DNA from: a virus
Virus genome (UHGV): UHGV-0035817
Reading direction: 5' to 3' (one strand)
Length of the DNA stretch: 30,260 nt
In this document: positions 184 through 30,260 of the stretch, in pieces
Numbering within the stretch: position 1 is the stretch's first letter
Layout: each line of letters starts with the position of its first letter
Program-made: the position numbers and the translations under genes
Notes under the pieces: model-generated
The model's database searches: none
What the model was told of the DNA's origin: nothing
The model's input: only the letters and a program-made list of their open reading frames with translations

Positions 184-202
184 TGTCCACATAGCGTCCA
201 CA
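184..202. promoter_or_regulatory. Putative integrase arm-type binding sites (tandem TGTCCACA octamers), left arm
   Basis: TGTCCACATAGCGTCCACA; a near-identical 19-mer occurs at 30083-30101 just inside attR. Both lie in phage DNA flanking the core, as expected for tyrosine-integrase arm sites. Confidence 0.5.
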
Positions 203-24292: not shown

Positions 24293-26569
24293 TCAAATGG
24301 GTAACGAGAACCCCGGCCACTCATCAGCAACCGGATACGTGAATTTTTTCCCGTCATAATTTACGGTCGCGCCACGCGCCAGCGCCTCAAGCTCCCATCG
24401 TTGCGGCCTGATACCGTTCTGAGCGAGGTCAACGCGGATACGGGTAATTTGCAATCGTTCAGACCTGGTCAGTCTGGCAGATGGTGCAATTTCATGCGGT
24501 TTTAACGGGATTCCGTTTCTTTGCTGACGATTTGGTGTTCTCAGTCCGTGTTTTAATGCGCCCCTGAGCGCCATCACGACCTCCGGGTCACTCCATTCGA
24601 TAACACCGTCATCTACCAGATTAAGCACTGCTGCGGCGTGCTCAGAAGGTGTGGGAGCCGGTAACGAAGTATCACCACCGGTGAGCTTTCCACAGTTATT
24701 GACAGGACTCCGAGGCGCGGCGATGCCGCTTTTTAAAGTCAAAGGCTCAACGACCGGAACTTTCGGCACAATGCGCCAGTCCGTCGTTCTGGTGATATGA
24801 ATATGACGCGCGCCGAGATGCGGCGCGTAAATGCCGACCACTCTCTCGACTTCTTCCTCGTACTCGTTAACGTCATCCGACAGACTACGGGCGACCCTGA
24901 CAGTCTGACAATCGCGCGGGACATTTGCCCCGCCCTGCGCGCTGATATACAGCGCAAAATCACCACTGTCTGCGGCGGCGCGTGCAGCCTCGACGCGCTC
25001 GTCAAACTCATCAGCAATGCTGACGCCGCGAGGCAATTTGCGTAGTTCACGGTAAGCCCCCATTGTCGGCAGGCCAACCGTTTTAAATTGCGGAATGCGC
25101 CACGTTGACGCCCATGCGGTAACAGCCGCTGCAGTGTCTTTCAGCGGCCTGCCGGTGTCGTTATCGAGCTGACCATCCAGTGCATAGCCGTCGATGTTTT
25201 TTGAAATGTATTTCGCGATATATCCCGCAGCACCGCCCCGGTTAAGGTGTTTTGCCTGAAAACGGTTTCGCGCGGCTCCTCTTTCGTCGCCATCCTCTTT
25301 GAGCGCATAGCGACGCATGATTTCGATAATCTGGTTACGCTGGCGTGGATGACAAAAAAGCATCATATGCCAGTGCGGCGTTCCGTCGTGGTGTGGCTCG
25401 ACGACTCGCAAACCGTAGACCTGTAAATCATTATCCTTGAATGCCGTGCGCATCAGGCTCCAGATACGGCAGAGATAACGCTGCGCATCCTTTGGATTAA
25501 ATGCCTCATCGTTCCAGCCGTGATTAAGCTGAACGGTTTTACTTTCGCCTTTTCCGACCTGACGTGTCGGGTGATACTTTGACGGCGCGGTCAGCGTGAT
25601 AAACATCCCCACATCACCCTCTGCGGCGGCGTAACGCTCAATACCGGCAATGGTGTTCATCAGCTCCATCCGGCGAATTTCAGGATTAGAAATACTGCCC
25701 ATCACCTTACTGATAAGGTCGATGCGCTCGCCGGTTTCCCTGTTTTCAAGGTCACACGATTTAAGAAATTCCAGATTTGCCTGGCGGCGCGCACGCACAT
25801 CACGAATGGCGTGTTTACTGGCATAAGGAGAACGGTCTTTATTGACCTCCCCGACAGCTATCAGTAACGCCTCATGCCAGCGCATACGCTGGCCTTTAAG
25901 CTGATGAGTCCACCACTCATCGTTAAACAGGCGGGCAATGGCAGAATATGCCTGCCTCGTGGTCATCTGTCCTTTACGGTATTTTTTCCAGTAGAGCGGG
26001 GAAATATTGAAAGCACGTGCAGCGCCAGCAACATGACCATACAGGTGAGCCTGCGCCTCATCCGTAAACAGCGATTCTTTTTCACCATGCGCATCAACCC
26101 ATGCATCGCAGAGTTCCTCATACATCATGAAAAGCTGCGATGAGATACGGGCGGCAAACTTTTTCAGCTCCTTGTCATTCATTCCCGGCAGGCGCGCATA
26201 GTGGTCACGCTCTGCCAGAAACAGCAACGACGCGTCGGTGTTCATTTCATGGCGCTGATTCACACGCTCAATGCGCGGCCATAAACGACGCTGAAAAGTA
26301 GATGTGAGGAAATAAAACCCGTGCACCGGGCTTTTATTGCGCCGGATGTAGTCATAGCGTGAAGTAAACAGCGAGCGCAAAAAGTAAGGCAGGCGGTTAA
26401 TCGTGGATAAAACACCTTGCACCTGACGCATCTCGTCACGTGTAAGAGGTCTTTCGCGCCCGACAGCCTCGCGTGGCGCGTTCCATGCATAAGCACCGGT
26501 AAACGCCTTACCGGTGCCTGCGGTAAATGCTGACGGAGGGACAAAACGCCCGGAGGCTTTAACGGCCAT
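24293..26569 (-). CDS. A: Replication initiation protein A (rolling-circle nickase, about 758 aa)
   Basis: MAVKASGRFVPPSAF... matches my recollection of the P2 gpA N-terminus; the ORF track uses an upstream TTG at 26611, so the start is uncertain. Confidence 0.85.
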   Translation of the reverse strand: MAVKASGRFVPPSAFTAGTGKAFTGAYAWNAPREAVGRERPLTRDEMRQVQGVLSTINRLPYFLRSLFTSRYDYIRRNKSPVHGFYFLTSTFQRRLWPRIERVNQRHEMNTDASLLFLAERDHYARLPGMNDKELKKFAARISSQLFMMYEELCDAWVDAHGEKESLFTDEAQAHLYGHVAGAARAFNISPLYWKKYRKGQMTTRQAYSAIARLFNDEWWTHQLKGQRMRWHEALLIAVGEVNKDRSPYASKHAIRDVRARRQANLEFLKSCDLENRETGERIDLISKVMGSISNPEIRRMELMNTIAGIERYAAAEGDVGMFITLTAPSKYHPTRQVGKGESKTVQLNHGWNDEAFNPKDAQRYLCRIWSLMRTAFKDNDLQVYGLRVVEPHHDGTPHWHMMLFCHPRQRNQIIEIMRRYALKEDGDERGAARNRFQAKHLNRGGAAGYIAKYISKNIDGYALDGQLDNDTGRPLKDTAAAVTAWASTWRIPQFKTVGLPTMGAYRELRKLPRGVSIADEFDERVEAARAAADSGDFALYISAQGGANVPRDCQTVRVARSLSDDVNEYEEEVERVVGIYAPHLGARHIHITRTTDWRIVPKVPVVEPLTLKSGIAAPRSPVNNCGKLTGGDTSLPAPTPSEHAAAVLNLVDDGVIEWSDPEVVMALRGALKHGLRTPNRQQRNGIPLKPHEIAPSARLTRSERLQITRIRVDLAQNGIRPQRWELEALARGATVNYDGKKFTYPVADEWPGFSLPI

Positions 26570-28314: not shown

Positions 28315-28587
28315 TCACAACCCCATCCACAAAAGCCATGCATCACGCTGTTCAACCGGTCGGTTATAAAACGCCTCACGTACAGCGCGATTAAACTCAG
28401 GAATGAAAACCCATTTTTCACCGGCACGAGCCTTCGGTTTGCAAGGATCACGCAATTCAATAATTGGTAATTTATTTGCCTTCACCATTTCACTGACGGC
28501 TGTCTTTGGCTTCCCTAATAAATCAGCAAATTTATCCACATGAACCGCATCAAGCGGATACTGAATCACATAATTTTCAGCGTCCAT
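28315..28587 (-). CDS. cox: Cox excisionase / early repressor of Pc (about 90 aa)
   Basis: ...GKPKTAVSEMVKANKLPIIELRDP...RAGEKWVFIPEFN...RDAWLLWMGL resembles P2 Cox; start chosen at MDAENYV (GAGGG RBS); upstream ATG at 28602 is possible. Confidence 0.8.
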   Translation of the reverse strand: MDAENYVIQYPLDAVHVDKFADLLGKPKTAVSEMVKANKLPIIELRDPCKPKARAGEKWVFIPEFNRAVREAFYNRPVEQRDAWLLWMGL

Positions 28588-28723
28588 ATATGGTACCCTC
28601 ATAGGATCCAGCCCTTTCTAAACCACTCAAAACCGTTTAGATGCTGGTTTATTCTCAAATCAATGGAACCTATATAGGTTCCAGTTTTGAGGGAATTTAG
28701 TCCCTATATAGGCACCATGTCAA
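28588..28723. promoter_or_regulatory. Immunity switch region with putative operators (two copies of palindrome CCTATATAGG at 28669-28678 and 28703-28712)
   Basis: Direct repeat of a 10-bp palindrome between divergent C and cox; the first sits inside an 18-bp perfect palindrome GGAACCTATATAGGTTCC. Confidence 0.55.
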
Positions 28724-29017
28724 ATGAAATTAAGCGAAAAGATTAAGGCCTTGCGTGAGGCTGAAGGGCTAAGCCAATCAAAATTCTGTGAAATCATAGA
28801 GTTACCGCTAAGCACACTTAAAAAATATGAAGGAGGAAACTTTGAACCCGGTGGCACAGCTTTGCTAAAAATCACTATGCATCCCACATTCCAAAAATAT
28901 GCTCTATGGCTTATGACAGATAAAACCGCGCCGGACGCAGGACAAATCGCACCGGCTCTCGCGCACATTGGGCCAGAGTCAACAGAGTCCAACCACTCCG
29001 CGAAAAGGATTGGCTAA
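28724..29017 (+). CDS. C: Immunity repressor C (97 aa)
   Basis: ...FQKYALWLMTDKTAPDAGQIAPALAHIGPE... closely resembles the C-terminal half of P2 C as I recall it. Confidence 0.85.
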   Translation: MKLSEKIKALREAEGLSQSKFCEIIELPLSTLKKYEGGNFEPGGTALLKITMHPTFQKYALWLMTDKTAPDAGQIAPALAHIGPESTESNHSAKRIG

Positions 29018-29086
29018 CTCTATATAAAGATTACATTTTCACCATTTGCTACCAAGATGGTGAATACAGCGCCGGAGGGCTTTCTT

Positions 29087-30067
29087 ATGGCAATTAAGAA
29101 GCTCGATGATGGTCGCTATGAAGTGGACATTAGACCTCGCGGTCGCGACGGAAAACGCATCCGCAGGAAATTCGAAAGAAAAGCTGAAGCACTAGCATTT
29201 GAGCGATACACAATCGCCAATGCCAGTCAGAAAGAATGGGGAGGCCAGCGAGCAGACCGCCGGACTTTGAGTGAGTTGCTGGACATCTGGTGGAAATATC
29301 ACGGGCAAAACCACGAGCATGGAACAAAAGAGTTTAATCATCTACTCAAAACCATCAGCGGCATAGGTGATATACCAGTGAGCAGGATGAGCAAAAGGGC
29401 TTTGATGGATTATCGTTCCATGCGACTACGTGATGGTATCAGTGCCGCAACGATAAACCGTGACATGTACCGATTATCCGGCATGTTCACAAAATTAATT
29501 CAATTGGATGAATTTTCCGGGCAACACCCAATTCACGGACTGCCGCCACTGGCGGAGGCCACCCCTGAAATGACGTTCCTGGAAAAAGCAGAAATCGAAA
29601 AACTGTTAAATGTTTTGGCTGGTGATGACTTACTTGTCGCGCTTTTATGTCTGAGCACCGGAGGAAGATGGACGGAAGTTGCCACGCTAAAACCAGCACA
29701 GATTACAAATTGCAGGGTTACCTTCCTGAAAACCAAAAACGGTAAAAAGCGAATCGTGCCGATTTCTGAGGAACTGGAGAAAAAAGTTAAAGAGGAGGCC
29801 AGCGCCAAATTATTCAAAGTTGATTATGAGAAATTTTGCGGGATTTTACGCAGAGTGAAACCTGATATACCACCCAATCAGGCAACCCACATCCTGCGGC
29901 ATACATTCGCAAGCCATTTCATGATGAATGGGGGCAATATAATCGCACTGCAACAGATTCTGGGACATGCGAGCATTCAGCAGACGATGGCCTATGCGCA
30001 CCTTGCGCCTGACTATCTGCAAAATGCCGTCGCTCTGAATCCACTAAAAGGCGGAGTGACGTTATAA
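29087..30067 (+). CDS. int: Tyrosine integrase (326 aa)
   Basis: MAIKKLDDGRYEVDIRPRGRDGKRIRRKF... P2 Int-like N-terminus; C-terminal catalytic region HILRHTFASHFMMNGGNI...LGHASIQQTMAYAHL; start trimmed to ATG with GGAGGG RBS. Confidence 0.9.
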   Translation: MAIKKLDDGRYEVDIRPRGRDGKRIRRKFERKAEALAFERYTIANASQKEWGGQRADRRTLSELLDIWWKYHGQNHEHGTKEFNHLLKTISGIGDIPVSRMSKRALMDYRSMRLRDGISAATINRDMYRLSGMFTKLIQLDEFSGQHPIHGLPPLAEATPEMTFLEKAEIEKLLNVLAGDDLLVALLCLSTGGRWTEVATLKPAQITNCRVTFLKTKNGKKRIVPISEELEKKVKEEASAKLFKVDYEKFCGILRRVKPDIPPNQATHILRHTFASHFMMNGGNIIALQQILGHASIQQTMAYAHLAPDYLQNAVALNPLKGGVTL

Positions 30068-30082: not shown

Positions 30083-30101
30083 TGTCCACATAGTGTCCAC
30101 A
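30083..30101. promoter_or_regulatory. Putative integrase arm-type binding sites, right arm (TGTCCACATAGTGTCCACA)
   Basis: 18/19 identical to 184-202. Confidence 0.5.
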
Positions 30102-30186
30102 CTCAAGAAATTTTGAAACCGCTCCAAACCCTTACAGCTTTCGATAAGTACCTGTTTTTACTTTTGATTGCATGTAAGTAATTGAT

Positions 30187-30230
30187 AAAAAAAACCCCCA
30201 CATCATGTGGGGGAAGACAGGGATGGTGTC
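30187..30230. repeat. attR core: 44-bp direct repeat identical to 92-135
   Basis: Exact repeat; host-like sequence continues after 30230. Confidence 0.85.
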
Positions 30231-30260
30231 TATGGCAAGGAAAACAGGGTTTACTACTGG

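Follow-up and report, generated by a model that had tools for sequence, protein, structure and literature searches.

The DNA analysed here, called the window in the following, is a stretch of 30,260 bp and is, judged from its sequence, a WPhi/L-413C-type P2-like prophage located between fieF and cpxP of E. coli. The start of E. coli fieF is found at its left flank and the end of cpxP at its right flank. The right end, which carries C (28724-29017, + strand) and int, matches L-413C, FSLSP004 and several records named 'P2' at 99-99.9% identity, and the left junction corresponds to a WPhi-type attP. The gene int (29087-30067, + strand) encodes a P2-type tyrosine integrase of 326 residues with the Pfam domains Int_N and Phage_integrase, and its ORF has a further upstream ATG at 29057. 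The gene cox (28315-28602, - strand) encodes the directionality factor and Pc repressor (Pfam Phage_Cox, E 1e-23). Identity to the P2 proteins is 52% for Int and 45% for Cox. An exact direct repeat, CCTATATAGG, is observed in the cox-C intergenic region at 28669-28678 and 28703-28712, 34 bp apart, and its two copies are likely C-repressor operator half-sites. At the other end of the window, an ORF of 135 aa (298-705, + strand) lies between the P arm of attP and ogr. It gave no Pfam match, and the matching genome of E. coli annotates it as a 'hypothetical protein'. Since WPhi has no gene between its P arm and ogr, ORF 298-705 looks like a moron inserted beside attP.

Attachment core and insertion site

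Both prophage ends carry an exact direct repeat of 47 bp, at 89-135 and 30184-30230, which represents the att core. It is shared by attP and attB, belongs to the cpxP-fieF intergenic region and is identical to the attP core of WPhi. For WPhi and L-413C, one integration position in MG1655 (4104392) and identical attP cores were reported (PMC3448106), and the window prophage occupies the same host site. The copy at 89-135 forms the ogr-side junction (P-O-B' type) and has a terminator-like hairpin on the - strand at 118-100. The copy at 30184-30230 forms the int-side junction (B-O-P' type) and, with its flank up to 30244, reconstitutes the CpxQ sRNA on the - strand. CpxQ was identified by the cpxQ annotation of MG1655 (b4716, an sRNA of 58 nt from the cpxP 3'UTR) and by direct sequence comparison. 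The core consists of nucleotides 15-58 of CpxQ, which are its 3' 44 nt, plus 3 nt and includes the CpxQ terminator hairpin. One difference to MG1655 cpxQ is found, in the terminator loop, with A here and C in MG1655. Thus, the prophage lies inside cpxQ and rebuilds cpxQ at the cpxP-side junction, where an intact copy is kept in the lysogen (30184-30244, - strand). A gathering-threshold Rfam scan of the whole window gave no match, and our literature search retrieved no paper joining CpxQ, prophage and integrase.

A strong intrinsic terminator, formed by AAAGCCCC, a loop and GGGGCTTT followed by a T run, is located at 213-246 on the + strand, just outside the left one of the two octamer pairs described below. 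In attP it would end transcription running in the direction of int. In the prophage this terminator is separated from int, and read-through from int would therefore run antisense into cpxQ and cpxP.

Tandem octamer pairs on both arms of attP

Interior to both core copies, a pair of octamers is found in direct repeat, 11 bp from start to start. The left pair (184-202, + strand) reads TGTCCACAtagCGTCCACA (TGTCCACATAGCGTCCACA) and the right pair (30083-30101, + strand) reads TGTCCACAtagTGTCCACA (TGTCCACATAGTGTCCACA). Three octamers, at 184-191, 30083-30090 and 30094-30101, are exact copies of TGTCCACA, the reverse complement of TGTGGACA, while the one at 195-202 is CGTCCACA. The original prediction had named tandem octamers at these two places, and a search of both strands of all 30,260 bp for the 19-mer with up to three mismatches retrieved exactly these two, both on the + strand. 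In 100 dinucleotide shuffles 0.00 matches were obtained, with a chance expectation of 0. The single octamer is not enriched in the window (20 matches with at most one mismatch versus 25.9 expected), so the signal resides in the tandem arrangement and in the position. Between the left core copy and the left pair there are 48 bp, and 82 bp separate the right pair from the right core copy, in agreement with the predicted placement of about 50-100 bp inside the core repeat in one orientation. No overlap of either pair with an ORF of at least 60 aa is found, and the right pair begins 15 bp after the int stop codon (30067).

Reconstruction of the circular attP gives the order int stop, 15 bp, pair, 82 bp, 47-bp core, 48 bp, pair. 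The P' pair, the core and the P pair lie at +16, +117 and +212, respectively, on the + strand. The two pairs thus flank the core on both arms in the same orientation, and this part of the original prediction is borne out. The P2 annotation makes the int-proximal pair (30083-30101) the P' arm and the ogr-proximal one (184-202) the P arm. The P2 record (NC_001895) contains protein_bind features for the Int 'P arm' (24293-24320; CGTCCACAcatTGACCACA in int sense), IHF (24324-24357), the Int 'attP core' (24356-24383), Cox (24399-24472) and the Int 'P' arm' (24470-24496; TGTCCACAcagTGTCCACA in int sense). For arm sites of the P2 type, the published consensus is tgTGGaCa; two or more direct repeats lie on each side of the core and are recognised by the N-terminal domain of Int (PMC3448106). 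This statement and the feature annotation of NC_001895 are the experimental basis for the P2 sites. On the int-sense strand TGTCCACA corresponds to this consensus, being the reverse complement of its form TGTGGACA, and each arm of the window attP has two direct repeats one helical turn apart. The likeness to P2 noted in the original prediction is real and extends to the layout.

P2 and the window have in common the octamer TGTCCACA/TGTGGACA, its two copies per arm with 11 bp from start to start (a layout of 8+3+8), the pairs on both sides of the core and their orientation in both arms and relative to int. The order of the Int arm, IHF, core and Cox features of P2 parallels that of the window attP. 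The IHF site of P2 lies between the P-arm pair and the core, as does an IHF-like site in the window; the Cox region lies between the core and the P' pair, where the window holds a candidate Cox repeat; and the terminator is just outside the P arm, which is its equivalent position in the window. At the level of single sites, the first P-arm octamer (184-191) is homologous in position to CGTCCACA in the P2 'Int P arm', and the second (195-202) follows after 11 bp and is the same in WPhi and SI7. The first P'-arm octamer (30083-30090) is homologous to the P2 'Int P' arm', and the second (30094-30101) is assigned by its sequence match and by comparison with P2 and its relatives. Differences are also observed. 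The core has 27 bp in P2 and 47 bp, in cpxQ, in the window. The distance between the pairs, start to start, is 174 bp in P2 and 196 bp here. The P' pair lies inside the 3' end of int in P2 but after the int stop in the window, and the P-arm pair deviates from the consensus at two positions in P2 and at one here. We also considered a helical phasing of the pair-to-pair distance (196, 174 and 276 bp) and rejected it; the 22-bp gap to P2 is about two turns, and 276 bp has no clean fit.

WPhi (AY135739 / NC_005056) is much closer. Both of its 19-mers are identical to those of the window (19/19 for the P' pair and 19/19 for the P pair), the WPhi/L-413C attP has the identical 47-bp core and the same 196-bp spacing, and WPhi Int is 98% identical to the window Int. 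The P' spacer differs, with 51 of 82 positions identical.

Very probably, the four octamers are the arm-type sites for the heterobivalent tyrosine integrase of the P2 family which this prophage encodes, as had been proposed. This is supported by the P2 protein_bind features, by the published consensus and by the conservation in Int relatives, and binding of Int to these octamers is suggested by the homology to the annotated P2 sites together with this conservation. The pairs would then be the already known arm-type site set of a WPhi/L-413C-type P2-like phage and nothing new. Their importance is small beyond a correct annotation, which fixes the attP anatomy of this prophage with its P and P' arm sites, core, IHF site and int. 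The element bears the sequence features of a complete P2-type recombination module.

In phage lambda, IHF bends and the excisionase set direction, and the same logic would apply here. Lambda also shares the principle of a heterobivalent tyrosine integrase whose N-terminal domain binds repeated arm sites (P1, P2 and P'1-P'3) on both sides of the core, as is well established (see also PMC9791396). The lambda arm sites differ in sequence, number and arrangement from those of the window, which are two plus two tandem direct repeats. Compared with lambda, the P2 record has one annotated IHF site, and the excisionase of the P2-like phages, Cox, is also a transcriptional repressor (PMC3936717). Arm sites of the 186 type (consensus tgccGCCActt) are also tandem pairs with 11-bp spacing beside the int stop, for example TGTCGCCActtTGTCGCCA and TGGCGACAgagTGGCGACA. 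Their octamer is a different one, and the N-domain motif of the 186-type Int is WLCECYP versus YEVDIRP. From these sequence features, the window clearly belongs to the P2 type rather than to the 186 type. Among the 186-type loci of our sample (L047-L081), the int-proximal pairs are TGGCGACA in some lineages and the reverse complement TGTCGCCA in others (Vibrio), so that arm pairs of the 186 type have no fixed orientation relative to int, unlike those of the P2 type.

Probable arm sites and the N-terminal domain of Int among relatives

The neighbouring int encodes a P2-type N-terminal domain, which is the predicted arm-binding domain. The alignment of the window Int with P2 Int begins at MAIKKLDDGRYEVDIRP and shows no difference over the first 17 residues. 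Identity amounts to 71% in residues 1-55, 37% in the core-binding domain and 54% in the catalytic domain. This pattern fits a shared arm specificity and a different core specificity. The first 56 residues of Int are covered by no Pfam model, and our search gave no solved structure for the arm-binding domain; 5c6k (molecule name 'Integrase'), the nearest PDB entry, which we take to be P2 Int, aligns only from about residue 48 of the window Int. Thus, we infer the protein side of the contact.

The conservation of the pair was analysed in 80 Int-encoding genome loci and eight phage attP regions. A pair was counted when its octamers had 11-bp spacing, the same orientation and at most three mismatches in total to TGTCCACA, and when it lay within 60 bp of the int stop. 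Such a pair is present in 40 of the 53 Int relatives with at least 45% identity, across many genera, and in 3 of the 35 with at most 45% identity. Control windows of 120 bp from the same loci pass in 16 of 5152 cases (0.3%), several of which are the other arm. Some of the 13 relatives without a clear pair at this strict criterion have truncated matches or another arrangement, such as the inverted copies in one locus (L010). The spacing in P2 and the relatives is the same 11 bp as in the window. The position of the pair ranges from -32 to +31 relative to the int stop codon, and the motif is retained.

Pairs with the same layout on both arms are found in P2, WPhi, SI7 (P' arm TGTCCACAttgTGTCCACA, P arm TGTCCACAaagCGTCCACA), P88_4B11 (P' arm TGTCCACGcagTGTCCACG, P arm TGTCCACGcaaTGACCACA) and SEN4 (P' arm TGTCTACAtctTGTCTACA, P arm CGTCTACAtttTGACTACA). 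In the attPs which share the WPhi core, the octamers are retained and the spacers drift. Between the window and SI7, for example, the P' pair and the P pair are each identical at 18 of 19 positions and the P spacer at 21 of 48. In the Salmonella phage SEN4, all four octamers are changed in concert at one position to the TGTCTACA type. At 1988-2006 and about 2180-2200 of the SEN4 locus (L084) the octamers are TGTCTACA, TGTCTACA, CGTCTACA and TGACTACA, with T for C at position 5; the SEN4 core is nearly that of WPhi, and the N-terminal domain of SEN4 Int is 65% identical to that of the window. Other octamers are TGTCCACG in P88_4B11, TGTCCATA in the Yersinia/Serratia/Rahnella group, CATCCACA in Providencia, GGTTGACA with more distant Int relatives (e.g. 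Cupriavidus, Iodobacter and Janthinobacterium) and TGGCGACA or TGTCGCCA with 186-type Ints. Across these lineages the octamer type tracks a distinct Int N-terminal sequence.

Three other readings of the octamers were weighed. That the repeats arose by chance or by mutational duplication and have no function would agree with the single octamer, which is not over-represented in the window. The 19-mer, however, is found at the two arms and nowhere else, with 0 expected; its layout is kept on both arms of P2, WPhi, SI7, P88_4B11 and SEN4; the octamers stay while the flanking spacers diverge; and the pair is kept by 40 of the 53 closer relatives against 0.3% of the control windows. Because of this conservation, chance is effectively refuted, and we give it practically no weight. 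It is also highly improbable that another regulator of the phage (Cox, the C repressor or Ogr) binds the octamers instead of Int. Short direct repeats spaced by roughly one helical turn or more are indeed recognised by Cox and C of P2-like phages (PMC3936717), and the Cox footprint of P2 abuts and slightly overlaps the P' arm feature. But nothing similar to TGTCCACA is present in the switch region between cox and C (28603-28723), to which both regulators must bind, and the repeats found there are TCNAAACC and CCTATATAGG. Furthermore, P2 and the window phage share the octamer despite only 45% identity between their Cox proteins. A P2 cox mutant is not complemented by the Cox of WPhi (PMC3936717), so that a common octamer stands beside heterospecific Cox proteins. 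The equivalent positions are annotated as Int sites in the P2 record, and the octamer type follows the type of the Int N-terminal domain.

The remaining reading concerns only the int-proximal pair, which would be mainly a signal at the level of RNA or transcription, a 3'-UTR control of int, with its likeness to the other arm being secondary. Expression of P2 int is reportedly regulated post-transcriptionally, and the pair, which follows the int stop by 15 bp here and in P2 lies within the 3' end of int, is transcribed together with int. This explanation does not account for the second pair, which lies past the core with the same sequence and orientation and fits a two-arm DNA site rather than a 3'-UTR element. 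Direct repeats do not form a hairpin, and the pair slides about the stop codon among relatives while its DNA motif is kept. We regard a primary role in RNA-level control as very unlikely.

Accessory sites and a model for the recombination module

A probable IHF site is found in the P arm on the - strand at 149-179. It consists of TATCATCAGGTTA (149-161, one mismatch to WATCAANNNNTTR in a consensus scan) after the A/T-rich sequence ATAAATCCATTTA. The region 149-179 is homologous in position and sequence to the P2 IHF feature at 24324-24357, and the ATAAAAGGATTTAT block is conserved in alignment A1. A second, perfect IHF consensus (TATCAATTACTTA / TATCAAttacTTA) is located at 30175-30187 on the - strand, where it straddles the P'-side core boundary, and is a candidate only. 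Its WATCAA and TTR parts are kept in WPhi, SI7 and SEN4, and the NNNN part varies. This consensus is absent from the host attB. The single annotated IHF site of P2 lies on the other arm.

In the P' spacer, candidate boxes for the excisionase Cox are observed at 30114-30129 (+ strand). Their sequence, GAAACCGCTCCAAACC, resembles CTAAACCACTCAAAACC at 28618-28634, just upstream of cox, in having tandem (T)CNAAACC units 10 bp apart, and both may be Cox boxes of this phage. A scan of attP for the P2 cox box TTAAASNCM with at most one mismatch gave no hit in the P' spacer, and no P2-type boxes are assigned there. Their absence is expected, because the two Cox proteins are only 45% identical.

Excision requires Cox, which inhibits integration (PMC3936717). 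Following the P2 and lambda paradigms, we infer the following roles for the sites and proteins of this module. In attP, the order would be int, P'1-P'2 (30083-30101), a Cox-binding spacer, the 47-bp core, the IHF site, P1-P2 (184-202) and the terminator. Int would bind the TGTGGACA octamers with its small N-terminal domain (about residues 1-55), the two octamers of each pair being presented on the same DNA face by their spacing of one helical turn (11 bp), and would bind and cut the core with its central and C-terminal domains. With the P arm bent by IHF, Int protomers bound at the arms would gain access to the core and to the host attB, so that their catalytic domains are delivered and an intasome is assembled for integration. 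Integration would leave each end of the prophage with one pair. In excision, Cox would occupy the stretch from the core to the P' pair and remodel the int-side junction, so that Int could bridge both junctions.

Three further ideas, taken jointly, are rather doubtful. A WPhi-type attP may use the second IHF site (30175-30187), which is a perfect match to WATCAANNNNTTR, and the geometry of its intasome would then be different from that of P2. With a core formed by the 3' end of CpxQ, an envelope-stress sRNA, this phage group would target and rebuild an sRNA end, as other phages do with tRNA or tmRNA genes. And the concerted switch from TGTCCACA to TGTCTACA in SEN4 could provide a natural specificity pair for decoding how the N-terminal domain reads DNA. 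The octamer variants TGTCCACA, TGTCCATA, TGTCTACA, TGTCCACG, CATCCACA and the 186-type TGTCGCCA, set against the variants of the Int N-terminal domain, might be of modest use for the engineering of P2-family integrases.
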